Source: Promethearchaeia archaeon (GTDB taxonomy: Archaea > Asgardarchaeota > Lokiarchaeia > Sigyniarchaeales > SOKP01). Taken from it: DNA of 64,000 nt. Below, piece after piece: positions 2,155-24,201 of the stretch. Under the pieces are notes generated by a model. It searched no databases and was not told the DNA's origin. It worked only from the letters and a program-made list of their open reading frames with translations. Position numbers and translations under genes: made by a program. Location: contig JAHQWH010000015.1 in NCBI GenBank assembly GCA_029856105.1, positions 96,001-160,000 on the forward strand, written 5' to 3'. Each line of letters opens with the position of its first letter. Within the stretch, counting starts at the first letter, position 1.

Positions 2155-2601
2155 ATGACAAAGTACATTTACTGTAAAGTTTGCGATAAAGAAATCGATC
2201 ACGCCGTAAAAAAGCCAATGGAAACTTTTCAGAAAATAATATGGGTGATGTTAACGATTGCAACAGTAGGAATCGCGGGTATCGTTTTTGCTTTTTATTA
2301 CATGAATAAGAAGAAGGTTTATTGTCCTACCTGTCGAGCTAAAGTAGATTTTTCAAAAAAACCACATAAAAAACCTGAGGAAGAAACGGAGCCGCTCACC
2401 ACAAAAGAAAAAATTCTCAAAAAAGCTGGAGAAAAAATAGAAGCTAAGAAGAGAGCAGAAAAGGAGGAAGAAGAAGCGCCATCGGAAATAACCGATGAGA
2501 AAAAAGAAGATCAAACATTTTGTCCCTACTGCGGAGAAGATATAAAACCCGACGCTGTGAAATGTCCATATTGCCATTCTTCACTAAAAACACCTTATTA
2601 A
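2155..2601 (+). CDS. Membrane-associated zinc-ribbon protein (LITAF-like N-terminus, C-terminal double CxxC ribbon)
   Basis: CKVC - hydrophobic stretch - YCPTC, charged linker, then CPYC...CPYC. Confidence 0.7.
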   Translation: MTKYIYCKVCDKEIDHAVKKPMETFQKIIWVMLTIATVGIAGIVFAFYYMNKKKVYCPTCRAKVDFSKKPHKKPEEETEPLTTKEKILKKAGEKIEAKKRAEKEEEEAPSEITDEKKEDQTFCPYCGEDIKPDAVKCPYCHSSLKTPY

Positions 2602-2735
2602 TTTTAATTTTTAGAATCTTATCAATTAAGTATTATTTAATAATTAAATAGTAAAAATTCAAATAAACTAAAAGACATATAATATAATAAAAATTTGAAA
2701 ATCTAATTAAAAATATTTGATAGAGTGAAAAAATT

Positions 2736-3506
2736 ATGCCAAGAAAACCAAGAAAAGAACCAACGAGAGCAGCTAATCCCTTAGACGAGTATTCAACTTG
2801 GGATTTACGCATTGCTAAAACGATTTACTACTCAATTATAGTTTCTTCAGCAACCACGATTTTAGGTATTTGGCTAACGATTATTGGATGGTTAATAGAA
2901 TCGGGTAGATGGGATAAGATAGCAGATTTGGGTGCAGGTGTCGTCGCTTTAATTATCGTTGGGATAATCGTGTTACATATGTTTTTACTCGTCCTATTTT
3001 ATATTTTATTTCGAGGAGGTATACTTAGATTATGCCAGAGACTCTTCAAGGATAGAGTATTAGCCAAGAAGTACGAAGACTACACAACGCTAAGACTTTT
3101 AATAGCAGTAACACTAATTAGTGTTTATTTATTTCTCATAACATTATTTGTCGTAATAGTTCCTTCATTTTTCTTAGAAATCGTTAGTGCCTTTTGGTAT
3201 TACATTATAACGCATTTCAACCCTGGAGAGTGGGTTTTGTTTGTCGGTTTAATGCTATTTATTATTGTGATGCTTGTGTATGTGGGTTTTGCTATTTGGA
3301 ACCATGGAGTCTTTATCGTGCTCAAACGCGTTAAAAGAATAGAAGAAGAAGAAGAAATCGAAGAAGAGATTAAAAGGGAAGAGTTAAAAGGGGAAGACGA
3401 CGAAAGTCTTCAAAAAGTCTACGAGAAACAAACTGGAAAAAAAGCGATGTATCGAGGAAAAGAAACTAAAGCGTACAAGTCTTGGAAACGCAAAATGTTG
3501 AGCTAA
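2736..3506 (+). CDS. Hypothetical multi-pass membrane protein
   Basis: About 4 hydrophobic helices, acidic coiled linker, basic C-terminal motif. Confidence 0.7.
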   Translation: MPRKPRKEPTRAANPLDEYSTWDLRIAKTIYYSIIVSSATTILGIWLTIIGWLIESGRWDKIADLGAGVVALIIVGIIVLHMFLLVLFYILFRGGILRLCQRLFKDRVLAKKYEDYTTLRLLIAVTLISVYLFLITLFVVIVPSFFLEIVSAFWYYIITHFNPGEWVLFVGLMLFIIVMLVYVGFAIWNHGVFIVLKRVKRIEEEEEIEEEIKREELKGEDDESLQKVYEKQTGKKAMYRGKETKAYKSWKRKMLS

Positions 3507-3658
3507 ACTCAAAAAATAAAAAAGATTCTTTCTTATTTTTTTTCTTAATTTTTTATTAATTTTTAAATAAGTATTAAATTGTTTATCTGCTTGTAAAAGT
3601 CTTTTTAAAAAAATTAGAAAAAATAAAAAAGTTTATTATAGTTTGTTAAAAGTAAAAT

Positions 3659-4570
3659 TTACCTTCTCATCATTCTGGGGTTGCGGAAAAGGTCAAGCTC
3701 AGTTTTAGGTATCTTGTAATCCGTAGTACCTGTTGATTTCATCTTTTTATACAATCTTTTAATTATTTTTTTAGCCTCGTCCATAAAGTTACAAGCCAAG
3801 CCAAAAAGTATCATGTAGCGCATAAAAGTTTTGTCTTTTGCGTAATCTTCGTCGAAGATTTCAATAACATATTCTTTTTGTATAGGATGCCCATCTACTC
3901 TCGCAATTACTTTCTTTCCGATTAAAAATTTATAGTTCCTCCCGGGACCGATAACTCCTTTTGCCAAAACCATTTGTAGCTTATCGCCTTTTTCTTCGGG
4001 AAGGAGGGGGAACGTCCAACGTGAACCCCAGAATCTCCATCCTCTTACGAATCGAATTAAACTTTTTACTCCTGGGACTTGTGCGTAAAAAACCGGTCCG
4101 GGGTGTTTAATTTCAAAACTCTGAATGAGAGAATGAGCTATGCTTAACTCTATTCCCCCTTTAAAATTACCACCTTTAGCCGTTGATTCCATGGTCTCTT
4201 CCATAATCGTAAAATAGCGGCATATGAGTCTTTTCTCCTCTAACGGGTTCTCTTCCCATTGCTCCTTATTAAAAGCAATGATATTTTTCTTTTGGCCGTC
4301 TATTTCAATTACGCCTTCGATATCGAAGTTTTTAGAGAACCAACGTGTTTTTGCGGTGTATTTGAGCTGTTGATGTATGCCCAATTCCTCGTCGTGCAAA
4401 CGAGTTCTCCAAAAATTGACTTTTATCTTTTTATAAACAGTTTTTCCTCGGGGTTTTTGAACTTCCTCACCTTTTTTTGGTGCTGGTGCTTTTTTTTTTT
4501 TAGTAGGAACAGCCCTTGCCTTCGCTCTTGCCTTTCTCGTTTTATTATCTTCTTCAGGATCATTTTCCAT
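3659..4570 (-). CDS. Hypothetical protein, possible LURP-one/Tubby-C/scramblase-like barrel
   Basis: Lys-rich disordered N-terminus; C-terminal pattern NYKFLIGKKVIARVDG...YVIEIFD...MILFGLA. Confidence 0.5.
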   Translation of the reverse strand: MENDPEEDNKTRKARAKARAVPTKKKKAPAPKKGEEVQKPRGKTVYKKIKVNFWRTRLHDEELGIHQQLKYTAKTRWFSKNFDIEGVIEIDGQKKNIIAFNKEQWEENPLEEKRLICRYFTIMEETMESTAKGGNFKGGIELSIAHSLIQSFEIKHPGPVFYAQVPGVKSLIRFVRGWRFWGSRWTFPLLPEEKGDKLQMVLAKGVIGPGRNYKFLIGKKVIARVDGHPIQKEYVIEIFDEDYAKDKTFMRYMILFGLACNFMDEAKKIIKRLYKKMKSTGTTDYKIPKTELDLFRNPRMMRR

Positions 4571-4786: not shown

Positions 4787-7555
4787 TTAAAGTTGAATTT
4801 CACAAGACTCCGAATCACAGAACTTACTTCCTATTGCTCTGTCTTTTGTTTTATCCAAATCTAAAGGTTTAAGTTTTGAAATCATTTCCTCGAATTTTTC
4901 TTTTGTGATTTCTTCGTAAGGAGCTTGTTTATAGCCGTGTTCTTTAATCGGTAGAAAACTTACGCTTTTTAGCTTATCCTCAAAACACTCCAACACGTGT
5001 TTAATCTGATTTGCCTCGTCTTGTTTAAAAGTAATCGTTATTGACACTTGGTTGTCGGACCAATATTTTTGATAGTCTGCGGCATTTTCCGCTTGTTCCC
5101 ATATAGAAACATCGTCCTTGGAACGTTCGAATAATTGTTCGTGGACAGGGAATTCGACTACTATAGTATTAGGAGAATAAGAATCTTCCTCTATGTAATA
5201 ACCCGCATTTTTAATGGGTTCTATCAAATCAGAATTAGTTGAAATGCGAATTCTTCTAATATAGTATTCTGAATGAGGATAATGAATTCCTGGAGGTACT
5301 CCCGGAAGTAAGCTAACGGTTCCGCTCGGTTTAACCGTTGTGATTTTTATCGATTTTGGGATACACAACCAATCGGAATAATCCTCGTCCAATTCCCGTA
5401 TATATTTATAGCCTTTATCACACCAGTCTAACATAGTCCTTCTCCCATGTTTCACAAAAGCTTCAATTATTCCCGTTTGTGAAATTCCCATTCGCCTATT
5501 CTTAAGCATAACTGCGTTAGTTTCTTGCCAATGCGTATTTACGAGCGTTACAGATTTGGCGTACAAATAAGCGGACTTTAGAGTGTCTTGATACTCTTTG
5601 TATGATTCATGCCTTGAAGGGAAGGTCTCCACAAGGCAGCAAAGCTCGAATGACTCCAACGTCTGTTCTCCGCAATTCGCTGTAAAAATCATTTCTAATT
5701 TTGGTCTATTTGTTTTAGTTTTCTTCTCATTTAATACGATTCCATAATTATGGTAGTCGTCTACAGTACCATTATAAACAACATCATATCCTAATCGTTT
5801 AACTGAGGCTATTTTATGATTATAAATTAAGCCATTTTCAATTAGCAATTCAGCTATTTTTTTAGCATATTGCTTATTCTGTGTTATTTTTTTAGAGCTT
5901 ATTTTAGGGATTCCAGAAATCATAAGACTATCTCCAATTCTTAAATCTCGCGCTTCAACTTGTAACATATCCCTTAGAAAAAATTTATGATTTCCTGTGC
6001 ATTTTATTGTGCTATCATCATCTAATTTTACTTCATATATTTTCTCATTATAGCCTGTAATTCTTGGATTTCTCATCATTCTTATTGCTGTTAATCCTTT
6101 ATCATCTTTACAGTACACAGGAACATCGTTTCCTTCTTCTGCCAATAATTTTATTGCTACAGCATTCCTACCATCAGCGACAGCAATCAATGTATTACCT
6201 GTAATGCAAGGGTTTACGCCAGCAGCTTTCTTATCTTTATGATCTGGCGGGTTTCCCATTCGAGAATATGCTTTTGCGTTTTCTACCCAAAGAATTCCAG
6301 GTTCTCCATTCACAGCAATCTGATCTGCTATGAAAGAATAGTCTAATCCTTTTACTGCGAATATGCTGTTATTGCTTGCCCATCTATGCGAATATAGTTT
6401 TTCTTTGTCTTGTTTGCACTTAATGAACTCTAAATCGGTGGCTTCCCCTAAGGCTATCTCAGCGCTGCGCCTAACATTGCCTGCGACGACGCATTTTCCA
6501 ATGAGATTCATAATATCCAAAATATCAAGTGATCTTATTGGTTGACCAATTCGAGCTTCTAAGATTTTTTGAATATTCATCAACATATCCTTTAAAGGGT
6601 CTGGACCGCTGGCAATTCCTCCAAAGCCTCTAATTGGCTGACCTGCAGACCTGATTAAGCTAAAATCAAACTTTGGAATTCGCTTACCTAAAAGATACGC
6701 TTCTATAACAAGTTTAAGTGCTTCCACCCAACCTTCTCTGCTATCGGGTATTTGAAAAGTAAAATGATCTTCTATAGGTTTTTTAATTGTAATTTTACCC
6801 GCTCCTTTCGTATCAAAACCGACCCCCACACCTAACATTAGCGCATCCATCACGAATTGAAACGCTTTCGAGTATTTTAAGTTAATATCGTCGGTAGAGG
6901 CAAAACCACAGTTATTGAGCGACATAGAACCGTGCCGCGCGATAAATTCGGTCCCCATCATCCATAATCCTCGACCAGGTGGCAGAAATTTAAAATTCCA
7001 GATTTTATCGTACATTATTTGAGCAGATTTCTGAGCTTTAGCATCGGTCCAAGGTAAACTTAACTTAATACAGTGCTCCTTTTGGATTGAATAACAACCT
7101 TCGACAACTCTTCTGATCGTTTCCCAGAACTCTTCTTTTCTGTTCTCTCCTTCTACAACTCTTGCGTAGGTTCTTTTGTACGTAATATACCCTAAAGGCC
7201 CCCAATCAGGTTGTTTCCCTATAAATTTAGCAAGAAAATTGTCGTCTAATGTGAAAGATATATTTTCCAAATTAATAGCTCGCGCGAACAGATTTCGATA
7301 TTTATTTAAACCTCGTTGGGTTAGCTCGACACACACTAATTCTCTAATGTAATTAGTAGTGATCTCGTCAACTCCTAAACCAATAATTATTCGAATAACA
7401 TCTTCCGTAACTTTTTCCGCAATGTTTATATCAAGACCAGTTTCTTTGTTTAATACTTTTGCTATGTTAGAAACTTCGAATTTTTTCTTTTCGCCTTTCG
7501 AGTTTATTACATATTTTGGATACAAATCTACTAATGAAAACGAATTATCAGTCAT
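4787..7555 (-). CDS. nrdJ: Class II (adenosylcobalamin) ribonucleotide reductase, monomeric RTPR type, with N-terminal ATP cone and intein
   Basis: YKRTYAR, PPGRGLW, LNNC, VVAGNVRRSAE, NP/CGEQ split by an intein, TVKPSGTVS, QAPYE, C-terminal CDSESC. Confidence 0.95.
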   Translation of the reverse strand: MTDNSFSLVDLYPKYVINSKGEKKKFEVSNIAKVLNKETGLDINIAEKVTEDVIRIIIGLGVDEITTNYIRELVCVELTQRGLNKYRNLFARAINLENISFTLDDNFLAKFIGKQPDWGPLGYITYKRTYARVVEGENRKEEFWETIRRVVEGCYSIQKEHCIKLSLPWTDAKAQKSAQIMYDKIWNFKFLPPGRGLWMMGTEFIARHGSMSLNNCGFASTDDINLKYSKAFQFVMDALMLGVGVGFDTKGAGKITIKKPIEDHFTFQIPDSREGWVEALKLVIEAYLLGKRIPKFDFSLIRSAGQPIRGFGGIASGPDPLKDMLMNIQKILEARIGQPIRSLDILDIMNLIGKCVVAGNVRRSAEIALGEATDLEFIKCKQDKEKLYSHRWASNNSIFAVKGLDYSFIADQIAVNGEPGILWVENAKAYSRMGNPPDHKDKKAAGVNPCITGNTLIAVADGRNAVAIKLLAEEGNDVPVYCKDDKGLTAIRMMRNPRITGYNEKIYEVKLDDDSTIKCTGNHKFFLRDMLQVEARDLRIGDSLMISGIPKISSKKITQNKQYAKKIAELLIENGLIYNHKIASVKRLGYDVVYNGTVDDYHNYGIVLNEKKTKTNRPKLEMIFTANCGEQTLESFELCCLVETFPSRHESYKEYQDTLKSAYLYAKSVTLVNTHWQETNAVMLKNRRMGISQTGIIEAFVKHGRRTMLDWCDKGYKYIRELDEDYSDWLCIPKSIKITTVKPSGTVSLLPGVPPGIHYPHSEYYIRRIRISTNSDLIEPIKNAGYYIEEDSYSPNTIVVEFPVHEQLFERSKDDVSIWEQAENAADYQKYWSDNQVSITITFKQDEANQIKHVLECFEDKLKSVSFLPIKEHGYKQAPYEEITKEKFEEMISKLKPLDLDKTKDRAIGSKFCDSESCEIQL
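5675..6208 (-). mobile_element. Mini-intein (178 aa, no homing endonuclease) in nrdJ
   Basis: In-frame insert between GVNP and CGEQ; starts CITGNT, block B CTGNH, block F VYNGTVDDYHNY, ends FTAN|C. Confidence 0.92.
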
Positions 7556-8002
7556 TATTTTACTCCTTAATTGCGATAATGGTTAATACATTAATTTTAT
7601 CGGCGTTATACAAAATATCTAAATTTTGAGTGCCTTAACCTAATTTTTAATTTAAGTTATAATATAATATAAAATTATTGATTCAATCTTATTAAGCGAT
7701 TGATGAATCTGTTAAAATCTTGCGTATTTCATATAATTTTACATCTACTATTCAATTACCCAATTAGTTTAAATTTTTAACGATTAATCTATATTACATC
7801 TCCTATGGTTTTCTAATCTATTTACGTCGGTTTTTTTAACATATAGAAACCATCATTAACAATATGTTTTTATTGATTAGCACATTTAAAAAAAAATTGA
7901 AATTGATTACAATATTATTAATATTAATAATTTTAAATTCGATTTAGAAAGTGCAAATACTAAAAATAATTGATTTTAACGATAATATTGGTGTAGTAAA
8001 AA

Positions 8003-8956
8003 TTGTTAGACGAAATTGAACCGCCTGATATGAATGACTCTGATGGTGAAGTTGCTAAAGAAAAAATAAAACTCCAATTCCATTGGTATTTGAGTATATT
8101 TTTTGTTATATACTATTGTTCATATGTAATACCGGGAATTGTCTTTATGATGTATGTGATATTAGTTTTTATCCCTCTCTTTTTAAGGGTAGATAACTTG
8201 TTTGTTGTCTTTACGAACCTTGATTCTTTAATAGCTTTTTTAGCCTTACCGTTAGTTCTTATTGTGAGTTATTTAATCCACTTATTTTTAATAGGTTTGA
8301 TCTCGCGAATTTTCTGGAGATACACTGAAAAAATCTCACCAAGTAAAGACGGCGTCATTCCAAGAAACATCCCTTCTAAAACGGCTAATTTATACCATAT
8401 AAGATCCTTTATGATTAAATACGGAAAGAATGCTTTCATGAAAGGGATATTCCCGTGGCTTTCCAATTGGTTCTTCAACTTCGTAGGAACAAGCGTGATT
8501 GCAAAGGGCTCTACACTCGAGGAATCAGTAGTTACGGATAGAAACGTAAATGTCGGAAAAAACTGCTATATTGGAGTTAATTCGGCGCTCTCTAGCCATT
8601 TTGTCGAGGGAATCTTCGGAAATATAGTGTATTTCGAAATAAAGCTAGGAGAAAACGTTACTTTAGGAGGTTTTAATAACATTGCGCCAGGATGCGAGCT
8701 AAGAGATAATTCGTATTTATTGCCAATGGCAGCAGCAACTAAGCACAATTTACTGAAAGGAGATAACTACTACTTTGGTATGCCTTTACGCAGGATATTC
8801 AGGAAGAAAGTTATGAATTACTTAAAGATTAGCGAAGATAATTTAATTCAAGCTGAAGAATTAAGAGTTAAGCAGGAAAACGCAAAGTTAGAAAGGATAC
8901 AAAAAGAAGTAGAAAAAAATGAAAAAAAAAAAGTAAAAAATGAAGGCGTGAGATAA
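8003..8956 (+). CDS. Membrane-anchored hexapeptide-repeat (LbH) acyltransferase-like protein, subunit type A1
   Basis: Two TM helices, then LbH turns (VNVGKNCYIG, IKLGENVTLG), SSHFVEG, YFGMP. Confidence 0.8.
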   Translation: MLDEIEPPDMNDSDGEVAKEKIKLQFHWYLSIFFVIYYCSYVIPGIVFMMYVILVFIPLFLRVDNLFVVFTNLDSLIAFLALPLVLIVSYLIHLFLIGLISRIFWRYTEKISPSKDGVIPRNIPSKTANLYHIRSFMIKYGKNAFMKGIFPWLSNWFFNFVGTSVIAKGSTLEESVVTDRNVNVGKNCYIGVNSALSSHFVEGIFGNIVYFEIKLGENVTLGGFNNIAPGCELRDNSYLLPMAAATKHNLLKGDNYYFGMPLRRIFRKKVMNYLKISEDNLIQAEELRVKQENAKLERIQKEVEKNEKKKVKNEGVR

Positions 8957-8957
8957 A

Positions 8958-9869
8958 ATGAATGAAGATATAGAAAATGAGAATAAAAGCTCTGAAAACA
9001 TAGATGATGACTCTGACTTTAACATTGATTTTACTACGAGTTCTGCTATTAACAGAGTTAGTCTTAAGTTTTTAATAGTATATATACCAATCTTTTGGTT
9101 TTCAGGTATTATTGTAGCAACTTTTTGGTACGGCTACACTGTGGGTACAGAACCATGGATTATTAAATTGTTATTTTTACCCATTTTATTGTTAGCATTT
9201 ATGTTTCTTTTCATTATTAGTTGCTTCTTTTTTAGTAAGCTTCTGTTAATTTTAATAAATTTAATACACCTTCCCAAAGAAGGAATTTTCCGAACTGAGA
9301 AGGGCGACACGGATTTTGAATTTTGGAGATTAAGAAACGAAATAAAAAAAATTGTTTTGTGGTTGATAAGAAACTGGCCTCTACCTTGGATAGACGTATT
9401 AGCTTTTCGCTGGTTTGGGGTAAATATGGATTTTTCGAGCCACTTGAACGATGCGTGGTGCGACGCTGAATTTATTAAGTTTGGAAACAACGTAACAATC
9501 GGCCAAGGGGCCGTTTTAATGAGCTCAATGGTTGTAGGTAATTATCTAATCATTAAAAGAATAACATTCGAAGATTTCTCCCTTGTTGGAGGACAAAGCA
9601 CGATTGCTCCTGGAACTCACTTTGGAAAAGACACTGTTTTAGGTGCGGTATCAGTTACCACTCTTAATCAAAAATTAGAAGACGGGTGGATATATTCAGG
9701 TATTCCTGCTAGGAAATTAAAGCCTAATCAATACGCTGAAATGAGAAGAGATATTATACAAAAAGTAGATGTTGACGAAGAAGAAAAAACTGAAGTAGAG
9801 CACGAAGTTAATATTGACGAAGATAAAAAACATTTAATTAAAGGAAACAAGGAGGGCGTTAAAAAGTGA
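8958..9869 (+). CDS. Membrane-anchored LbH protein, subunit type B1
   Basis: Two TM helices, IKFGNNVTIGQGAVL, YSGIPA; 1-nt gap to upstream gene. Confidence 0.8.
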   Translation: MNEDIENENKSSENIDDDSDFNIDFTTSSAINRVSLKFLIVYIPIFWFSGIIVATFWYGYTVGTEPWIIKLLFLPILLLAFMFLFIISCFFFSKLLLILINLIHLPKEGIFRTEKGDTDFEFWRLRNEIKKIVLWLIRNWPLPWIDVLAFRWFGVNMDFSSHLNDAWCDAEFIKFGNNVTIGQGAVLMSSMVVGNYLIIKRITFEDFSLVGGQSTIAPGTHFGKDTVLGAVSVTTLNQKLEDGWIYSGIPARKLKPNQYAEMRRDIIQKVDVDEEEKTEVEHEVNIDEDKKHLIKGNKEGVKK

Positions 9870-10792
9870 GCGTTCCGAATTCAATGCGAGTTGGTCCTTT
9901 TTGTGCAACCGTATTGGCTAAGAAAAAATATTTGCTTTTGTACATTTTTTTAATATGGATAAGTCTACTTCCTGCGATATTGGAAATTTGGTGGTATTGG
10001 CAGATCTTGTGGTACGATTTAAGACCACTTCATTTTTATGTGTTTTTACCTCTTTATTTTATTGTGATGTATATCACAACTGTGTTTGCTGCGATTTTCT
10101 TTGCTAAAATTTTATTAATTATAGTTAATGTCTTTCACAAACCAAGAGAAGGCGTTTTTCTAAGGGATTCCGCAGACAAAGATTATAGATATTGGAGCCT
10201 TAGAAATACGATTAAAAAGTGGCCAACCTGGCTTGCGCATAAATTTCCCTTTCCATTTTTAGACAATATTTGTTTCAAGGTGTTTGGAGTAAAAACAAAA
10301 TTTTCTAACTCTCTTTTTGAAGGTTGGGTGGATACTGAATATATCGAGTTCGGTAAAAATGTAGTTGTTGGTCAGGGTGCCATAATTCAATCTTCGGCTA
10401 TTATAGGAAACTTTTTAATTATTAAAAAAACTATCATTGAAGAAAACGTTAGAATAGGCGCACATGTAATAATTATGCCAGGCACCCATATAGGAAAAAA
10501 CTGCATTTTAAACACTTGGTCGTCTACAATGGTAGGTCAAGAACTAGAAGAAGGTTGGGTGTACAATGGGGGTCCTGCGAAAAAATTCAAGAAAAATAGA
10601 TTTTTTGAAGACATTCCAATCGAAAAACTTACTAAAACCGTTGGAGACCTTGACGGACTATTAAAGAAATACGATGAGCAATATGTTAAGCGGCAAGTCA
10701 AAAAAAAGGTACCTCTCAAAGAAAGAAGAATCCATATAAGAAAAGAAAAATCCGAAGAAAAACCGGAAGAAAAAACTAAAAAAAAGGATTAA
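9866..10792 (+). CDS. Membrane-anchored LbH protein, subunit type C1
   Basis: Two TM helices, IEFGKNVVVGQGAII, IEENVRIGAHVII, YNGGPA; GTGA start/stop overlap. Confidence 0.8.
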   Translation: MSVPNSMRVGPFCATVLAKKKYLLLYIFLIWISLLPAILEIWWYWQILWYDLRPLHFYVFLPLYFIVMYITTVFAAIFFAKILLIIVNVFHKPREGVFLRDSADKDYRYWSLRNTIKKWPTWLAHKFPFPFLDNICFKVFGVKTKFSNSLFEGWVDTEYIEFGKNVVVGQGAIIQSSAIIGNFLIIKKTIIEENVRIGAHVIIMPGTHIGKNCILNTWSSTMVGQELEEGWVYNGGPAKKFKKNRFFEDIPIEKLTKTVGDLDGLLKKYDEQYVKRQVKKKVPLKERRIHIRKEKSEEKPEEKTKKKD

Positions 10793-10794
10793 TC

Positions 10795-11580
10795 ATGAAA
10801 ATTGGTTATGTTCAAACCTCTCCAACCTTTAACGAAAAAACTCAAAACTTTGAACAAGTAAAGAACTTATTAACCAATATCAAAGCAGAATTAATTGTAT
10901 TACCCGAACTTTTCGCAACCGGTTATACATTCATCTCTAAAAAAGAAGCTGAATCTTTATCGGAAGATATTAACGGGCAAACCGCTCAATTTCTAAAGAA
11001 ATTATCAAAAGATACAGGTGGAGTCGTAATTGGAGGGTTTGTTGAAAAAGATGGCGATGAAATATTCAATTCTGCGATGATAGTTTCAAGAAATGAAGTT
11101 ATCGGTACATATAGGAAAATCCATCTATACTATAAAGAAAGCTTATGGTTCTCTCCCGGAAACAAGCCTTTACGAATTTACGAAGTAAACAACATGAAAA
11201 TCGGAATAATAATTTGTTTCGATTGGATATTTCCGGAGACAATTCGTACGCTCACGCTTCTTGGAGCTGATATCATTGCGCATCCCGCTAATTTAGTACT
11301 TCCATATTGCCAAAAAGCTATGATCACTCATTGTTTGGTAAATCGCGTTTTTGCTGTAACTTCTAACAGAATTGGCAACGAAGTAAGGGGAAAAGACGAT
11401 TTTAAGTTTACGGGGGGAAGTCAAATCACGTCTTATAACGGGGACATACTCTCGTCCGCACCAATGGATAAAGTCTACATTAAATTTATAGAAATTGATG
11501 TAATCCACGCGAGAAATAAAAAGCTTAATAGTTATAACGATTTACTAAATGATAGAAGACCAGAATTCTATCTTCAATAA
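10795..11580 (+). CDS. Carbon-nitrogen hydrolase (nitrilase family amidohydrolase)
   Basis: Glu-Lys-Cys triad motifs LPELF, YRKIHL, ICFDW. Confidence 0.92.
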   Translation: MKIGYVQTSPTFNEKTQNFEQVKNLLTNIKAELIVLPELFATGYTFISKKEAESLSEDINGQTAQFLKKLSKDTGGVVIGGFVEKDGDEIFNSAMIVSRNEVIGTYRKIHLYYKESLWFSPGNKPLRIYEVNNMKIGIIICFDWIFPETIRTLTLLGADIIAHPANLVLPYCQKAMITHCLVNRVFAVTSNRIGNEVRGKDDFKFTGGSQITSYNGDILSSAPMDKVYIKFIEIDVIHARNKKLNSYNDLLNDRRPEFYLQ

Positions 11581-11621
11581 TCATAAAAATCTTGAAAATA
11601 ATCCAGATCACATAAAAACAA

Positions 11622-12020
11622 TTATCTTAATTTAGAAAAAACTACTTGGTTCTCCAAGAAACTTATTATCTTTTTGCAAGTTTTTCGAACTATATTCTTA
11701 TTTGGATAAAAAATTTCTGGTCTTGGACATTCGCTATCAAAAACACACGAGTTCTTATCTGAATCGTAAATTAAAGGGTAAAATCGGCATCCTTGAGGTC
11801 TTATCTCGTAAATTTTACATAATTTTGTTTCCCCATCGAAAAAGAAGCAATGTCCGTTAATATTTTTTAATTGATAAAAGTTATCTTCAGTTTTTTGTAC
11901 AAAATCTGTTTTTCTCAAGGTTGTTTTATGACTACTAACGATAACTTCGATGTCTTGGTCAGAGAGAATCATCTCTGTCTCGATACAGCAATTTCCACAA
12001 TCTTCACATCTATTCTTCAT
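11622..12020 (-). CDS. YkgJ-family Cys-cluster (CxxCxxCC) protein
   Basis: CEDCGNCC...CFFF...CKIYEIRPQGCRFYP. Confidence 0.88.
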   Translation of the reverse strand: MKNRCEDCGNCCIETEMILSDQDIEVIVSSHKTTLRKTDFVQKTEDNFYQLKNINGHCFFFDGETKLCKIYEIRPQGCRFYPLIYDSDKNSCVFDSECPRPEIFYPNKNIVRKTCKKIISFLENQVVFSKLR

Positions 12021-12203
12021 ATTATCTTTTCTATTAGTATATGTGATTTTAAGGTTAGTTCTTAATCGTTTTGGTAGTTTTGTTGTTAATATAACTTTAA
12101 AAAGTAAAAAACATATCTATTTTACTGATGTCTAATTTATGATTGAGTAAATAATTGAAAGAACTCACTAAGTAACTTATCAATACTTTTCGTATGATAG
12201 AAA

Positions 12204-14042
12204 ATGCTTGAAGAAATAAAACCAGAATCATTGGATGAATCAGAGGATTCTCAAGAAGCCGTTATTAAAGAAACTGTGAAAATACAATTTAAAATCTACA
12301 TATTAGTATTTGCTTTTATTTACTATTTCTCTTGGATAATCCCTGGTATAATCTTAATGGCATATTTTTTTATGATTTTTCGAGTGTACTTTTTAGATAC
12401 CAGCAATTTTGTTATGCTTTTCACAGAACTGTATCCCCTCCTCTCATTGATTCTAATGCCGCTTTTAATAATAGTTTGTTATCTTATACACCTATTATTA
12501 ATTGGATTAGCAACAAAATTGTTTTGGAGTATTACTGAAAAAATTTCCCCTTCAAAAAATGGTATAATCCCAAGAAACATACAAAGTAAGACGGCAAATT
12601 ATTATCATATGAGAAGTTTCATGATCAAATATGGAAAAAATGTATTTACCAAAGGAATGTTCCCGTGGCTTTCCAATTGGTTCTTTGACTTTGTAGGTTC
12701 AAGCAAAATTGGAAAAGGGTCCACAATTGAAGAATCTGTAGGATCAGATAAATTTATTGATGTTGGGAAAAACTGTTATATCGGTGTAAACGCTACGTTA
12801 GCGTCTCATTTAGTGCAAGGCATATTCGGGAACATATCCTATTTCGAAATAAAGCTTAAAGACAACGTTACCCTCGCTGCGATGAATCAAATTGGTCCAG
12901 GAACCGAAATTGGCAAGGATTCTATTTTATTACCCTTAGCCTCATGTACTAAACACAGCGTATTAAAAGGGGGGAAATATTATGTAGGAATCCCCCTACG
13001 TAAAATTTTCAAAAAAAAAATTTTGGATTATTTAAGTTTGACACCTGAAGACTTAGAGCGAAACGATACTCTTAATGAATTTATTACAAAAAATAAAAAA
13101 GACAAAACTAAAGAAAAAACTAAAGAAAAATCTGAAGAAGATTTTACTGTTAAGCAGGAAAAGGAAGAACCAGTTGATGTAGATTGCCTTACAAAAGAAG
13201 ATCTAGCTTTGGACTTTACAACTAGTAGCGCTATCAGTAGAATAAATGTTAAATTTTTGGCAGTATATGTTCCCATTTTCTGGTTAAGTGGATTAATGGT
13301 AGCAATATATTGGTTTGAATACACAAGATATTTTGGACTAGAAACGATTTTGTTTTTACCAGTCGCAATCTTTTCTATGTTGTACATATTCATCTTAGGA
13401 GTGTTATTTTTTAGTAAAATGCTTTTAATTCTTGTAAATTTAATACATAAACCGCGAGAAGGTATTTTTCTCGCTGAAATTGGAGATAGAGATTACGAGT
13501 TTTGGATGTTGAGAACAGAACTAAAAAAGATCAGCCTCTGGCTAATTAGAAATTCTCCATTTCCTTGGGTAGATGTAATAGCGTTTAAATGGTTTGGAAT
13601 AAATATGGATTTTTCGAGCCATTTAAACGATGCGTGGTGCGATGCCGAATTTGTAAACTTTGGTCGATATAATTTAATTGGACAAGGAGCAACAATTATG
13701 TCCTCGATGGTAGTCGGCAAATACTTAATAATTAAAAAGGTTATAATTGACGATTATGTTATGATTGGCGGTCACACAACTATCGCCCCTGGCACGATAA
13801 TGGGACATGATTCGGTTATGGGCGCTATCAGTTCAACTACATATAATCAAATTTTAGAACCAAATTGGATATATTTTGGAATTCCCGGAATTAAACTAAA
13901 AGAAAATAAATATGCCGAAGAAAGAAGAGATATTATAATAAAGCGCGATGTTGACGAGCAAGTGAAAGTTGAGATGACTTACGAAGTTAATATTGATGAG
14001 GATAAAAAGAAATTAATAAAAACGGAAAATAATAAGGGGTAG
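12204..14042 (+). CDS. Fused A+B membrane LbH protein (A2B2)
   Basis: N-half is paralogous to 8003-8956 (FPWLSNWFF, ASHLVQGIFGNI); C-half is paralogous to 8958-9869 (DFTTSSAI, FSSHLNDAWCDAEF). Confidence 0.85.
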   Translation: MLEEIKPESLDESEDSQEAVIKETVKIQFKIYILVFAFIYYFSWIIPGIILMAYFFMIFRVYFLDTSNFVMLFTELYPLLSLILMPLLIIVCYLIHLLLIGLATKLFWSITEKISPSKNGIIPRNIQSKTANYYHMRSFMIKYGKNVFTKGMFPWLSNWFFDFVGSSKIGKGSTIEESVGSDKFIDVGKNCYIGVNATLASHLVQGIFGNISYFEIKLKDNVTLAAMNQIGPGTEIGKDSILLPLASCTKHSVLKGGKYYVGIPLRKIFKKKILDYLSLTPEDLERNDTLNEFITKNKKDKTKEKTKEKSEEDFTVKQEKEEPVDVDCLTKEDLALDFTTSSAISRINVKFLAVYVPIFWLSGLMVAIYWFEYTRYFGLETILFLPVAIFSMLYIFILGVLFFSKMLLILVNLIHKPREGIFLAEIGDRDYEFWMLRTELKKISLWLIRNSPFPWVDVIAFKWFGINMDFSSHLNDAWCDAEFVNFGRYNLIGQGATIMSSMVVGKYLIIKKVIIDDYVMIGGHTTIAPGTIMGHDSVMGAISSTTYNQILEPNWIYFGIPGIKLKENKYAEERRDIIIKRDVDEQVKVEMTYEVNIDEDKKKLIKTENNKG

Positions 14043-14044
14043 AA

Positions 14045-15004
14045 ATGTCAATTCCTAATACTATGCGCATAGGTCCATTTATACCGACAGTTTTAGTAAA
14101 GAAAAAATATTTACTTTTCTATCTAATTATCGTTTGGTTCAGTTTTATTCCTGTTTTTTTAGAATTTTGGGTTTATTGGCAATTTTTGTGGAATTATAGT
14201 AGACCAATTCACTTTTATACATTCTTACCTCTTGTAATTCTACCAATGTATATTACCCTTGTATTCAGTGCAATTTTTATTGCCAAAATCTTATTTATAG
14301 CCGTTAATGTCATTCAGAAGCCACAAGTTGGCGTATTTTTAAGACATCCAAGCGATAAGGATTATCGGTATTGGTGTATTAGGAATATAATAAAAAGATG
14401 GCCATTTTGGTTAAGTCATCGATTTCCTTTTCCTTTTTTAGACAACATCTGTTTTAAAGCGTTTGGAGTAAAGACAAAATTTTCAAATTCTTTATTTGAA
14501 GGCTGGGTGGATACTGAATTTATTTCGTTCGGACAAAACGTTGTTGTTGGTCAAGGAGCAATCGTACAATCTAGTGTGATTATCGGTAATCTCCTCATAA
14601 TTAAGAGAACTGTTATTGAAGACGATGTTAGAATTGGTTCTCACGCAATAATCATGCCTGGTACTTATATAGGAAAAAGAAGCGTCTTAGCTGCTAATTC
14701 AATAACAACGGTGGATCAAAAACTCGAGGATGATTATATCTACGTAGGAATTCCAGCAAAAAAATTTAAAAGAAATTATTTCTTTGAAGATGGTTTACAA
14801 GATAAAATAGGACAAGTTGAAGATGTAGAAGCTTTAAGGGCAAAATATGAAAAAATTTATACTAAACGCTACGATGAAAAACCAAAATATAAAGAACGAA
14901 AGAAAATAAAAAGAAAGACGAAAGCGCAAGAACAATATTGGTACGGGGTTGAACTAGAAGAGGGAGAAGAAGACGATATGTATGATGATCCATTTAACAT
15001 TTAA
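14045..15004 (+). CDS. Membrane-anchored LbH protein, subunit type C2
   Basis: Paralog of 9866-10792 (MS[IV]PN, FPFPFLDNICFK, FSNSLFEGWVDTE). Confidence 0.85.
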   Translation: MSIPNTMRIGPFIPTVLVKKKYLLFYLIIVWFSFIPVFLEFWVYWQFLWNYSRPIHFYTFLPLVILPMYITLVFSAIFIAKILFIAVNVIQKPQVGVFLRHPSDKDYRYWCIRNIIKRWPFWLSHRFPFPFLDNICFKAFGVKTKFSNSLFEGWVDTEFISFGQNVVVGQGAIVQSSVIIGNLLIIKRTVIEDDVRIGSHAIIMPGTYIGKRSVLAANSITTVDQKLEDDYIYVGIPAKKFKRNYFFEDGLQDKIGQVEDVEALRAKYEKIYTKRYDEKPKYKERKKIKRKTKAQEQYWYGVELEEGEEDDMYDDPFNI

Positions 15005-15162
15005 TTATTAAATTGCCTATTGAATTATCTACTAGTTTGAAAAACATTACGCTTTTAAACATAAACAGCATAATTTATACTAAATTATTATTTTATGTAA
15101 ATCCTAAGAATAATAATTATAAAAGAGAGACAGAATTAGGAAAATTAGATGGAGTTAAGATT

Positions 15163-16284
15163 ATGCCTATTTTAGAGCAACTTAAGGAAGCAACTCAACT
15201 TACAAATCCTTGGATTAATAGCTGGAAAAATGAAGGAAAAAAAGTATTAGGATATTTTTGTTCTTATATTCCCGAAGAGATTATCTACGCTGCAGATATT
15301 TTACCGATCAGGGTTAGAGCAAGAACGTGCACGGATACACCAATGGGAGATGCTTATCTAAGTCCCACCGCATGTAGTTATACAAGATGTTGTCTTGAGC
15401 AAATCAATAGAAAGGAATTTGGATACTTTGATGGAATTGTTTCGTGTAATTGCTGCGACCAGATTAGGAGACTCTACGATAATATAAGATATAAGGCTCC
15501 GTTTTCTTATCATTATATAATGGGAGTTCCCGGTTATGTCAGTGAAATTACATTAGATTGGTTTAAATATGAACTCTCTAAATTTAAAGTAAGTATTGAG
15601 AAAAATTTCAATACTAGTATTACTAACGAAAAGTTAAGTGATACGATTAGATTATTTAACATTTCTCGTAAATTGCTTAAAGAGTTATATGAGCTCAGAA
15701 AACATGAGTCTCCACCTATTACAGGTAGTGATGTATTAAATATCATTTCAGCAGGACTCTCTATTCCGAAAAATGAGTTTAATGCTTTACTGACGCAGCA
15801 ACTTGAGGAGATTAAGAATAAAGAGGGTATTTCTGATTATAAATCGAGAATAATGATAATCGGAAGTATGCTTGACGAACCAGAATATTTACAAATTATA
15901 GAGGATCTCGGCGGATTAGTAGTCACTGATTCGGTATGTTTAGGGACTCGATATTTTTGGGATATGGTTGATGAAACTACGAGTCCTCTTGATGCTCTTG
16001 GAGAGCGTTATTTATCGAAAATCTCATGTCCTCGTATGACTGATGGTCATATGAAAAGAGCGCAATTTATGATGGATATGATTAAAGAGTTTAATGTTGA
16101 TGGAGTAATTTTTCAAAGAATGAAGTTTTGTGCGATATGGTGGGCTGAGATTTTCATGCTTAGGGACAAATTAAAAGAAGAGGGTATTCCATTTCTTGAT
16201 TTAGAAAGAGATTACATATTAAGCGGCGCTGGAGCTATGAAAACTCGTGTTCAAACCTTTATAGAAATTTTAGAAGCGAGGTGA
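15163..16284 (+). CDS. 2-hydroxyacyl-CoA dehydratase / benzoyl-CoA reductase family subunit, beta type (HgdB/FldC/BcrC-like)
   Basis: GYFCSYIPEE, CCDQIRR, SCPRM, MKFC, KTRVQTFIE; ATG start preferred at 15163. Confidence 0.88.
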   Translation: MPILEQLKEATQLTNPWINSWKNEGKKVLGYFCSYIPEEIIYAADILPIRVRARTCTDTPMGDAYLSPTACSYTRCCLEQINRKEFGYFDGIVSCNCCDQIRRLYDNIRYKAPFSYHYIMGVPGYVSEITLDWFKYELSKFKVSIEKNFNTSITNEKLSDTIRLFNISRKLLKELYELRKHESPPITGSDVLNIISAGLSIPKNEFNALLTQQLEEIKNKEGISDYKSRIMIIGSMLDEPEYLQIIEDLGGLVVTDSVCLGTRYFWDMVDETTSPLDALGERYLSKISCPRMTDGHMKRAQFMMDMIKEFNVDGVIFQRMKFCAIWWAEIFMLRDKLKEEGIPFLDLERDYILSGAGAMKTRVQTFIEILEAR

Positions 16285-17609
16285 AAAATTTGGATATAGA
16301 ATTATTTAATAAATATAAAAAACTTGGAAGAGGTAATTGGGGGAAAGATCTTACTATGTGGAAAATGATGTATTTGGGATTTCTAAATCGATATAGAGAT
16401 GAAGAATTTACCCCAGTTTTGGATTTATTACTTAATATCTTCCTTGACCTCCCTAAGGCAAGGAAAGAAGGAAAACTTGTTATAATGCATCCATTTAATT
16501 ATGGTCCTGAATTATTTCACGCAATGAACTTAGCACCTCTTATGCAGGAATTATTTAGTGTTGGATTAGCCCCGTTACATCTTAATGAACCTTATATAGA
16601 TTTTACCAATAAAATTGGATATGGAGACAATCCAACAATCTGTAATGCTCAAAGACCATTGATTGGTTCTTTTATGCAAGGTGTTTCACCAATTCCAGAT
16701 TTACTATTTTTTCTTTCAACGCCTTGTAATTCTCTTGCTATGACTTATCAAGTTTTTGAACATTTAGCTAAAATCCCTGCACATAACATAGATGTTCCCT
16801 ATTGGGCTTATGAACAACAAGATAACGAATTTTATGATGAGAATACTATTGCATATATGGTAAATCAAGTAAAGGATTTAATAATATGGTTAGAAAAAGA
16901 AAAAAAGCAGAAGTTAGATACTGAAAAGCTCCAAGAGACAATGAAAAATGTGAATCAATCAAGGGAATATATATTAGAGTTTAACGAACTTTTAAAAACG
17001 GTTCCTTGCCCAGTACCTAGCCTAGCAGGTTTTGGGAACTTTATTTCCATGGTGACTCGTGGCGGTACTGATGATGCTGTTAAAGCTACCAAATGGCTAC
17101 GTGATTCTGCATTAGAAAATGTAAAAGATGGGATAGCCGGTGTACCTGATGAGAAGATTAGAATTGCTTGGCCTTATACTCATGTCTTCTTTGATGCTGA
17201 CCTTCTCACTTGGTTAGAAGAAACATTCAATGCAGTGGTGATTATGGATATTCTTGGATACTACCAAGTCCTACCTCACGATATATCTACAACAGAAAAA
17301 TGTTATGAGAGTTTAGCTAAGGGAACTTTAGATTTCTCAATGGTGGGAACCTGTCGTGGCCCAATTGAGTATTATATCGAATTTTTATTAAACTATGTAA
17401 AAGAATATAAAATAGATTGTGTGATTATGCCAATGCAATTTGCGTGTAAACACGCATATGCGATGGCTCGAGTTGCTTCTGAAGCTGTGCGAGAACAAAC
17501 AGGAATTCCGGTTTTAATTTTTGGTTGTGATCCTTATGATTCACGAGAAGTAACTTCAGATGCTATAAGAGAGAGGATTTCAGAGTTTCTCACTCAAGTA
17601 GTTTTATAA
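16281..17609 (+). CDS. 2-hydroxyacyl-CoA dehydratase family subunit, alpha type (HgdA/FldB/BcrB-like)
   Basis: TICNAQR, STPCNS, KIDCVI, FACK, GIPVLIFGCDPYD; overlaps upstream stop. Confidence 0.85.
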   Translation: MKNLDIELFNKYKKLGRGNWGKDLTMWKMMYLGFLNRYRDEEFTPVLDLLLNIFLDLPKARKEGKLVIMHPFNYGPELFHAMNLAPLMQELFSVGLAPLHLNEPYIDFTNKIGYGDNPTICNAQRPLIGSFMQGVSPIPDLLFFLSTPCNSLAMTYQVFEHLAKIPAHNIDVPYWAYEQQDNEFYDENTIAYMVNQVKDLIIWLEKEKKQKLDTEKLQETMKNVNQSREYILEFNELLKTVPCPVPSLAGFGNFISMVTRGGTDDAVKATKWLRDSALENVKDGIAGVPDEKIRIAWPYTHVFFDADLLTWLEETFNAVVIMDILGYYQVLPHDISTTEKCYESLAKGTLDFSMVGTCRGPIEYYIEFLLNYVKEYKIDCVIMPMQFACKHAYAMARVASEAVREQTGIPVLIFGCDPYDSREVTSDAIRERISEFLTQVVL

Positions 17610-17627
17610 AGGAGGTTTATTATAGAA

Positions 17628-18401
17628 TTGTTAGTAGCTGGATGTGATGTTGGTTCATTAACAGGAAAAGTTGTAATATTACAGGATGGTGAAATTTTAT
17701 CTTATAGTATTGTTCCTACAACACCTAAACCTGAAAAGACTGCTCAAAATGCGATGGATGCGGCACTTCAAAAAAATAACTTATCTTTGAATGATATCGA
17801 ATTCATTGTAGGGACGGGATATGGTAGGATTAAAATTCCCTTTGCCAATTCTCAAATATCAGAATTGTCATGTCATGGTAAAGGTGCCCACTCGGTTCTC
17901 CCATCAGTTAGAACGATAATTGATGTGGGAGGTCAGGATTGTAAGGTAATTAAAGTGGATAAGAACGGAAAGATTCTGGATTTTGCTATGAATGATAAGT
18001 GTGCCGCAGGAACTGGAAGATTTTTGGAAGTAATGGCTAGAACTCTGGAGCTCAAGCTTGAAGAGCTCGGTCCTATATCTTTAGAATCAAAGAATCAGGC
18101 TAAAATAACTGCTCAATGTAGTGTCTTTGCTGAAACAGAGGTAGTTAGTCTTATGGCTGATGGTATAGAAGTAGCAGATATAGTAGCAGGGATCCACGAT
18201 GCTGTAGCCTCTAGAATTATGTCTCTTGTGTATAGAGTTGGCCTTGAAGAAGATTTGACAATAACTGGAGGAGTAGCAAAGAATATAGGAGTTGTAACCT
18301 ATTTAGAGAAAAGGTTGGGTGTCACATCAAAAAAATTATCGGTTGATCCTCAAATAATAGGAGCTTTAGGAGCTGCTTTAACAGCAAAAGAGCAAAAATA
18401 A
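17628..18401 (+). CDS. CoA-substrate-specific enzyme activase (HgdC/BcrAD-type ASKHA ATPase)
   Basis: GCDVGSLTGK, GTGYGR, IDVGGQDCK, MNDKCAAGTGRFL, CSVFAETE, TGGVAKN. Confidence 0.95.
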   Translation: MLVAGCDVGSLTGKVVILQDGEILSYSIVPTTPKPEKTAQNAMDAALQKNNLSLNDIEFIVGTGYGRIKIPFANSQISELSCHGKGAHSVLPSVRTIIDVGGQDCKVIKVDKNGKILDFAMNDKCAAGTGRFLEVMARTLELKLEELGPISLESKNQAKITAQCSVFAETEVVSLMADGIEVADIVAGIHDAVASRIMSLVYRVGLEEDLTITGGVAKNIGVVTYLEKRLGVTSKKLSVDPQIIGALGAALTAKEQK

Positions 18402-23238: not shown

Positions 23239-23946
23239 TTATTTGAGTATGAAATATAATCTCCTGTTGTTCTTTCCTTTATTTGCAGTTTTAAGGATTT
23301 CAATCTTACCTATTTCGTTCAAATTTTTAACGTGCGTTCCACCATCTACTTGTTCGTCTATATCTCCAATTTTAATAATACGAAATTCCTTAATGTTTTT
23401 CGGTAATCCTATTGCTAATCTGGCCAGTTCTGGTTTTTGTAGAACTTCTTCTCGAGACATATAACCTATTGTAACAGGTAGATCTTTTTGGATGATTTCG
23501 TTTGCTTCATTAACATAAGCCCGTAGCTTTTCAGGTGAATAATCCTCCATTGAGAAATCCATTCTTGCTTTATCTAATTCAATCTGGTTGCCTGTGATTT
23601 TAGCGTTCGCTCTTCGGAATAGAAGATTTGAGACGAGGTGACAAGCAGTATGGTAACGCATATAAGTATATCGCCTTTCCCAATCAATTTCGCATGTAAC
23701 CAAGTCTCCTTTTTTCAATCCCAGTTTTTCTACTTCGTGGCTAATTTCCCCAGAAAATTTGCCTACATAAACAACCTTGAATTTTTCACCGTCTTTAATT
23801 ATATAACCCTCGTCCCATGGTTGACCGCCTCCTTTAGGATAGAAAGCTGTTTTATCAAGGATAATATATTTATCATCTTTCACAGAAACAACTTTAGCGT
23901 TCCAATTCTTTAAATAGGAATCTTTCATGTATAATGCTTCTGTCAT
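23239..23946 (-). CDS. alaX: Alanyl-tRNA editing protein AlaX (AlaX-M)
   Basis: LYMKDSY, TAFYPKGGGQP, HTACH, QVDGGTH; start at MTEAL. Confidence 0.92.
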   Translation of the reverse strand: MTEALYMKDSYLKNWNAKVVSVKDDKYIILDKTAFYPKGGGQPWDEGYIIKDGEKFKVVYVGKFSGEISHEVEKLGLKKGDLVTCEIDWERRYTYMRYHTACHLVSNLLFRRANAKITGNQIELDKARMDFSMEDYSPEKLRAYVNEANEIIQKDLPVTIGYMSREEVLQKPELARLAIGLPKNIKEFRIIKIGDIDEQVDGGTHVKNLNEIGKIEILKTANKGKNNRRLYFILK

Positions 23947-24201
23947 AGAGAATAAGAAAGTAGTTACACTTATAACTTTATTCTTAAGATTTTCTGGCAA
24001 TTATCCAAAATCTCTAAAATCAACCAGTTGGTAATTGAAGAGATAAGCAATATGGACGAAAATATTGAATCTTATTTTCACATGGAAATTTGAAGCGTTA
24101 CCCTAAAACCCTAGCGGGGGTTGTCAACACACATCTAATATTTATATGTATATCTCATTCAAAAAAGGGTATATTATATATATTTAAGCGGAATCTATTT
24201 A

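Follow-up and report, generated by a model that had tools for sequence, protein, structure and literature searches.

What kind of enzyme is encoded by a membrane-anchored beta-helix module that occurs twice, side by side, in an Asgard archaeon? The module lies at positions 8003-15004 of a 64,000-nucleotide stretch of Promethearchaeia archaeon DNA (contig JAHQWH010000015.1, positions 96,001 to 160,000; hereafter the window), as genes A1, B1 and C1 followed by a fused A2B2 gene and C2. Each encoded unit combines two transmembrane (TM) helices, a linker and a left-handed parallel beta-helix (LbH). To our knowledge, the only described enzyme of such architecture is the terminal domain of Pls (epsilon-poly-L-lysine synthetase) and PosA (delta-poly-L-ornithine synthetase), both of which resemble non-ribosomal peptide synthetases. 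We conclude, with a probability of about 60%, that the module is a split, hetero-trimeric, Pls-like membrane LbH acyltransferase that stands outside the Pls family proper.

The span holds seven genes, two of which (the C-N hydrolase and the CxxCxxCC protein) are not LbH genes. The genes, and two codons discussed below, are as follows.

8003..8956, + strand: A1, 317 aa, TTG start; putative catalytic-type subunit with two TM helices, linker and LbH
8597..8599, + strand: codon of A1 His199, in the motif S-S-H-F-V-E-G; candidate general base
8958..9869, + strand: B1, 303 aa; subunit without the His
9866..10792, + strand: C1, 308 aa, GTG start; subunit without the His
10795..11580, + strand: C-N hydrolase of the Pyrococcus nitrilase/PH0642 type, 261 aa
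11622..12020, - strand: CxxCxxCC (PF03692) protein, divergent to A2B2
12204..14042, + strand: A2B2, 612 aa; A unit (about residues 1-290) fused to B unit (about 335-612) through a K/E-rich linker
12807..12809, + strand: codon of A2 His202, in the motif A-S-H-L-V-Q-G
14045..15004, + strand: C2, 319 aa; subunit of the second set, without the His, grouping with the C genes found behind AB fusions

Junctions between these genes are tight. A1 and B1 are separated by 1 nt, C1 overlaps the B1 stop by 4 nt, and gaps of 2 nt separate C1 from the hydrolase and A2B2 from C2. Since the starts are also preceded by purine-rich stretches, A1-B1-C1-hydrolase and A2B2-C2 each look like one transcription unit.

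Unit architecture was the same throughout both sets. In each unit, two helices and a short loop make up a hydrophobic block of about 75 residues, behind which comes a K/R-rich segment, an order that fits a hairpin with both termini inside and a cytoplasmic LbH. The end of the unit, Y-x-G-x-P, was invariant in 6/6 units (Y257, G259 and P261 in A1). Pfam hexapeptide models (PF00132/PF14602) scored above gathering for A1 (27.5), C1 (40.4), A2B2 (39.1) and C2 (43.1); B1 scored 19.2, below gathering, and is 60% identical to B2. These hexapeptide repeats, together with the predicted left-handed parallel beta-helix (strand ladders past the linker in AlphaFold2 (AF2) models, and Foldseek matches), place the units in the LbH superfamily. 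An earlier note on this DNA had described three tightly coupled genes, a fused pair and a further gene, each unit with two TM helices, a linker, an LbH and the Y-x-G-x-P end, and both the architecture and the exact positions of the open reading frames (ORFs) bear this out.

The two sets are paralogous unit by unit. In pairwise BLASTP, A1 and A2 shared 57% identity, B1 and B2 60%, and C1 and C2 63%, compared with 37-40% between B and C and 22-26% between A and either of these. E-values for all unit pairs ranged from 1e-7 to 1e-138, far beyond chance. Since the C genes behind AB fusions form one clade that includes C2, and C1 falls in another, the sets are old paralogues rather than the result of a recent duplication.

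Predicted structures of multi-unit proteins pointed to the Pls/PosA terminal domain. A natural C-A-B fusion (P0126, 805 aa) was modelled by AF2 with pLDDT (predicted local distance difference test) 80.7 and pTM (predicted template-modelling score) 0.85, using a correctly registered multiple sequence alignment whose C part consisted of five sequences only; MAFFT alignments with many single C units, which were mis-registered onto the B part of the triple fusion, were left out of folding. The A2B2 protein of the window reached pLDDT 81.1 and pTM 0.75. Each unit of the P0126 model consists of two long helices, a short strand and two further helices, followed by the LbH. A published model of the PosA terminal domain is described with identical elements in identical order (PMC10522769).

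In the ESM Atlas, the only multi-unit neighbours of the P0126 model were clusters that combine PP-binding and Hexapep domains, with template-modelling (TM) scores of 0.48-0.52 over 454-497 residues; one 639-aa cluster scored 0.61 by target. The labels of these clusters, 'Pls/PosA family' or 'amino acid adenylation', are automatic names. Foldseek also gave probability 1.0 to soluble maltose, galactoside and serine acetyltransferases (MAT, GAT, CysE) and to AntD. Sequence and Foldseek searches of the PDB returned soluble LbH acetyltransferases, and no solved membrane LbH or Pls terminal domain. Architecture, cyclic fusions (described below), Atlas scores and the PosA model agree with three different units, each with two TM helices, linker and LbH, forming one pseudo-trimeric membrane domain.

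Sequence comparison gave a further link to Pls. TIGR02353, the hidden Markov model (HMM) of the Pls/PosA terminal domain, was the best NCBIfam match for B1, C1 and C2 and the third for A2B2. Its scores were 36-42 bits for single units, where mostly the LbH part was covered, and 54-67 bits for natural triple fusions, compared with a cut-off of 423 bits over about 695 positions. In the triple fusion at 67 bits, a 190-residue stretch (residues 612-802) aligned to model positions 272-456. For comparison with real synthetases we used seven annotated Pls/PosA genes, including A. baumannii PosA. Alignments of A, B and C matched the Pls repeats in hhalign with 93-98% probability over up to 201 columns, and HMMs of A, B and C matched the seven proteins weakly, in the LbH part only (2-46 bits for the whole protein). 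Heptaprenylglyceryl-phosphate O-acetyltransferase was the first or second NCBIfam match for several units.

Stand-alone proteins of about 250 aa with two TM helices and an LbH, found in other Asgard families and here called Asgard singles, form a bridge to Pls. These matched a whole Pls repeat at 80-93 bits and real Pls proteins at 90-137 bits, and annotated Pls/PosA genes were also matched by tblastn. In hhalign, their alignments to units A, B and C spanned 181-224 columns at 98% probability. We also searched 1.84 billion representatives with a profile built on the A clade and obtained 854 matches at E<=1e-3, of which 208 reached E<=1e-10. None of the best 150 matches exceeded 800 aa and Pls itself was not recovered; ten matches were sampled, and the few with a name were labelled 'hypothetical protein', a Helarchaeota archaeon being the source of one.

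Phylogeny sets the module apart from Pls. A tree of 73 units separated the 18 Pls repeats from the 55 Asgard units, with support of 97 in the Shimodaira-Hasegawa-like approximate likelihood-ratio test (SH-aLRT). On the Asgard side, the A clade (98) was sister to a second clade, X (96), within which B and C are sister groups that postdate the divergence from the single X gene of a sister family. That family carries two-gene A+X modules. Since Pls repeats and Asgard units form separate clades, the three-unit state arose independently of the Pls triplication, and its likely route was from a homotrimer through an A:X:X trimer to A:B:C. One-to-one orthology of A, B and C with the Pls domains C1, C2 and C3 is ruled out by the tree. 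Of the earlier proposal of a Pls-type triad, the likeness stood: TIGR02353 is the top match for B1, C1 and C2, hhalign probabilities are high, and Pls/PosA clusters are the only multi-unit fold neighbours. The claim that the module is equivalent to the Pls triad did not survive the low scores and the independent triplications.

The distribution of one histidine suggests that a single unit per particle is catalytic. At one alignment column, every A-clade unit sampled has His, including A1 (H199) and A2 (H202), as do 22/22 Asgard singles and 6/6 sequences of Pls repeat 3. Ser or another residue occupies this column in B, in C and in the X units of the sister family, and Pls repeats 1 and 2 have no His there; three repeat-2 sequences have a His one column later, perhaps an alignment slip. 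In A units, Glu or Gln follows three residues after the His. By analogy with soluble LbH enzymes, the A-unit His would be catalytic, and its loss from B and C implies one active site per trimer. Judged by the alignment and the tree, this asymmetry evolved twice, in Asgard A units and in Pls repeat 3.

The same genome also encodes LbH units outside complete triads. Contig C136 carries two adjacent X-clade units of 292 and 245 aa (2547-4166, - strand; locus L018), the first of which keeps the His; this pair adjoins genes for a metallophosphoesterase, MFS_2 transporters and a polysaccharide deacetylase. A lone A-clade unit of 267 aa lies on contig C161 (110650-111453; locus L019).

What the enzyme would use as donor is suggested by the genome around it. 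The window belongs to a 3.66-Mb, 92%-complete assembly (contig C19 in our labels), to which all genome-wide negatives refer; judging by the names of homologues, the organism belongs to Lokiarchaeia/Promethearchaeota. The adenylation (A) and thiolation (T, PP-binding) domains required of Pls/PosA synthetases are in none of the five genes, and we found no PP-binding domain and no ACPS-type phosphopantetheinyl transferase in the genome. Since no carrier system was found and the genome has 18 AMP-binding (acyl-CoA-synthetase-like) genes, we infer a coenzyme A (CoA) thioester as donor, and acyl-CoA is likely. The earlier note had been right that the window holds no adenylation or carrier domain; its suggestion of a carrier encoded in trans now appears unlikely, and for the poly-amino-acid synthesis that it considered, we found nothing that points to such a product.

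Polymer synthesis nevertheless deserves weighing as the first alternative. The module could be a true Pls-like isopeptide polymerase in which the amino acid is activated in trans, as aminoacyl-CoA, aminoacyl-AMP or aminoacyl-tRNA, and the polymer is released at or through the membrane and trimmed by the hydrolase. An enzyme of the latter kind exists for epsilon-polylysine, which is trimmed by PldII. We consider this reading unlikely, even though the Pls/PosA terminal domain is the closest multi-unit neighbour by both structure and HMM and shares the single-His asymmetry in repeat 3. Bacteria have already split the A domain from a protein with T domain and triad, as in Pseudonocardia, where plasmid NZ_CP012185.1 (locus L085) encodes a stand-alone AMP-binding protein and a 796-aa terminal-triad protein without an A domain. 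The Asgard genome has the 18 AMP-binding genes and the co-transcribed amidase-type gene, but no AMP-binding gene was linked to triads in any of 20 sampled loci. The missing carrier system also speaks against polymerisation, as does the finding that none of 301 Asgard genomes scored above the TIGR02353 cut-off and that the Asgard units lie outside the Pls clade. We know of no LbH enzyme that uses aminoacyl-tRNA, and an AlaX-like gene near the triads, considered as a sign of such a donor, was treated as locus-boundary synteny only.

Evidence that A, B and C work in one particle comes from their fusions and their joint occurrence. Fusions were found only as A-B (the window), C-A (P0127, P0129 and contig C45 of the same genome) and C-A-B (P0126, and P0128 of 797 aa), so that all share one cyclic order. 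Orthologues of A were present in 67/68 genomes of the window's family, in 7/7 of the sister family and in 1/225 of other Asgard families; those of B were present in 59/61 genomes of the window's family, one genome (G077) lacking both. A and B were adjacent in 20/20 loci sampled. The obligate heterotrimer proposed earlier is thus supported by the fusions, the loss of His from B and C, and conserved adjacency and co-occurrence. Beyond the order of the window, A-type genes occurred in a single genome, G241 (family f24; contig C82, 3160-7944; 77% identity to A1), where these may be mis-binned or recently transferred.

These data bear on a second alternative, that A, B and C each make a homotrimeric membrane acyltransferase with a substrate of its own, and that their genes stand together as a pathway with no complex. 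Homotrimers predominate among characterised LbH acyltransferases, other Asgard families commonly have stand-alone single units, and some genomes have additional A paralogues (A-A'-A'') or lone AB fusions that come with no C. Such an arrangement is quite improbable, however, given that B and C lack the His kept by every stand-alone unit and that natural fusions (A-B, C-A and C-A-B) tie the units together in a single particle. As one chain, the triple fusion was modelled at pTM 0.85, and the A+X modules of the sister family fit an A:X:X trimer that later became A:B:C.

A non-catalytic or non-acyltransferase assembly, such as a gamma-carbonic-anhydrase-like hetero-trimer on a membrane complex (plant complex I carries gamma-carbonic anhydrase (CA) and CA-like (CAL) subunits, and hetero-trimers with inactive paralogues are known there) or a structural or transport accessory, is very improbable: gamma-CA and CAL subunits of complex I do appear among the PDB sequence matches (E of 2e-4 to 3e-3), but acyltransferase families outscored gamma-CA for every unit, a His kept throughout the A clade and in all Asgard singles speaks for a catalytic role, and no respiratory-complex genes are linked.

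Returning to the acyltransferase reading, neighbouring genes offered some context for its acceptor and accessory functions. Across genera, the triads belong to a super-locus that begins with a ribonucleotide reductase (RNR) gene (- strand) and continues, sometimes after a DUF1295 gene, with A (or A-A'-A'')-B-C and the C-N hydrolase. A gene of the zinc-dependent alcohol dehydrogenase (Zn-ADH) family and the CxxCxxCC gene (- strand) follow, then sometimes a lone AB fusion, the AB fusion with C, and AlaX (- strand). The C-N hydrolase, a close homologue of Pyrococcus nitrilase/PH0642 proteins (E of 1e-70), was directly downstream of C in 13/19 sampled split triads, and the CxxCxxCC gene was a recurrent neighbour of the AB fusion and C set. 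A DUF1295 (steroid/polyprenol-reductase-like) gene adjoins A in at least 13 related loci, and in another Asgard family a geranylgeranyl-reductase-like gene adjoins singles in four related loci. Together with the YvoF-type NCBIfam matches, these neighbours hint weakly at an isoprenoid lipid as the acceptor.

We propose that the two anciently duplicated sets, A1+B1+C1 and A2B2+C2, would each form a hetero-trimeric, membrane-anchored LbH acyltransferase. In each unit, a membrane hairpin of two helices would lead through a short strand and the two helices of the linker to an LbH. The six hairpin helices would form a bundle in the membrane, and the three LbH domains would pack about a pseudo-threefold axis above it, on the cytoplasmic side; models of the Pls/PosA terminal domain show this arrangement too. 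The one active site of the trimer would lie at an interface of A, and B and C would serve as scaffold or substrate-binding partners. A CoA thioester would donate the acyl group to a membrane-associated amine or hydroxyl, possibly on an isoprenoid lipid, and the co-transcribed C-N hydrolase may hydrolyse or recycle an amide product.

Several observations weigh against this reading. TIGR02353 also matched generic LbH proteins in 13/14 control genomes, so its match is weak by itself. The TM and linker region alone, compared with Pls or Asgard singles in hhalign, did no better than reversed controls, so the case for sequence homology to Pls comes from the LbH part. The putative packing around a pseudo-threefold axis is suggested by the pTM of predicted models and by the Atlas matches. 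Regarding the role of the His, the literature searched named no catalytic residues of the Pls terminal domain. The lipid context is also less direct for this genome than for its relatives: DUF1295 and Zn-ADH genes are not in the window, and we found no close homologue of either in the genome.

A genome can carry as many as three A genes in tandem, additional AB fusions and several sets of the module. Four genomes of the same genus (G162, G258, G231 and G264; loci L062-L065) have five-gene arrays A-A'-A''-B-C followed by the C-N hydrolase, in which the tandem A paralogues are 62-79% identical to A1. Three tandem A paralogues suggest alternative catalytic subunits for one B-C pair. We offer a broader idea tentatively and expect it more probably to fail than to hold: that one Asgard order evolved, independently of Pls, a split, single-active-site, Pls-like membrane enzyme with exchangeable catalytic A subunits on a His-less B-C scaffold, and that it makes or modifies an envelope molecule so far not known from archaea, which would be an acylated isoprenoid lipid or an isopeptide-type polymer.

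Other variants of the module were seen in the same survey. Contig C45 of the same genome carries a third, more diverged triad (6349-8749, - strand; locus L017), made of a 508-aa C-A fusion and a 297-aa B and divergent to an acyl-CoA dehydrogenase gene (9027-10556). In loci L066, L068-L070, L072, L073 and L076-L081, a lone AB fusion that has no C gene to itself lies between the split triad and the AB and C set. On G121:C76, G222:C11, G204:C17 and others, the genome search gave frames of 950-980 aa over AB fusion and C, and ORF calls put a stop between AB and C.

Further genes were noted around the module. Two HGD-D proteins (2-hydroxyacyl-CoA dehydratase alpha/beta-like) and a BcrAD/BadFG-type activator are encoded at 15013-18401 of the window, the first 8 nt past C2. 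We rejected a conserved functional link between triad and dehydratase, as a genome of the same genus has the CxxCxxCC gene directly followed by HgdA/B and no AB-C set; the Hgd genes behind C2 are local synteny only, and in other genera AlaX comes after AB-C. In the window, the AlaX-type trans-editing protein is encoded at 23239-24000 (- strand) and is syntenic in relatives, as is a LITAF-like zinc-ribbon membrane protein (2155-2601). The RNR gene (4787-7555, - strand) encodes a class II (B12) enzyme with an ATP-cone and an intein; inteins number one or two in its counterparts among relatives, and one of these carries a LAGLIDADG domain (L022). In several genera a heliorhodopsin gene lies within the super-locus (L066:8560-9396, with equivalents in L070 and L072) and adjoins a gene for a conserved 546-aa protein without a Pfam match.

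In the literature searched, we found nothing describing this system, and nothing relevant on a Pls cryo-EM structure, on TIGR02353 or on Asgard membrane hexapeptide proteins. Asgard archaea are the closest prokaryotic relatives of eukaryotes, and the system is nearly universal and present in multiple copies in one of their orders. Since it is also found beside lipid-reductase-like genes in relatives, its product could be an unrecognised Asgard membrane or envelope component.

Three known groups of proteins come closest to the module. Soluble LbH O- and N-acyltransferases (maltose and galactoside O-acetyltransferase, CysE, WcaF, YvoF) share the hexapeptide LbH fold, and their NCBIfam models match the Asgard units at 24-63 bits. 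In a loop of their helix they have a His general base, of which the A-unit His is the candidate counterpart. However, these enzymes lack both the membrane hairpin and the linker, and their homotrimers each contain three active sites. Asgard singles (e.g. L056:1519-2277) share the unit architecture and the conserved His, and in the tree they group with A, B and C to the exclusion of the Pls repeats. They differ in occurring as single or paired genes, with no A-B-C triads, and in being nearer to Pls; since all keep the His, they are presumably homo-oligomers.

The closest multi-unit likeness is to the C-terminal polymerisation domain of Pls/PosA (C1-C2-C3, six TM helices). Both systems repeat a unit of TM hairpin, strand, two helices and LbH, both would place three different units in one particle, and in both the His-x-x-Glu motif occurs in one unit only, Pls repeat 3 or Asgard A. 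In contrast to the synthetases, the Asgard units are separate or partly fused genes without an adenylation or thiolation domain or a genomic carrier system; they score low, have no detectably similar TM and linker region and form their own clade. A split version free of A and T domains, with separable subunits, is a simpler system for studying the membrane LbH pseudo-trimer. If our reading is correct, it is also a second, independent case of a homotrimeric LbH enzyme turned into an asymmetric particle with one active site.

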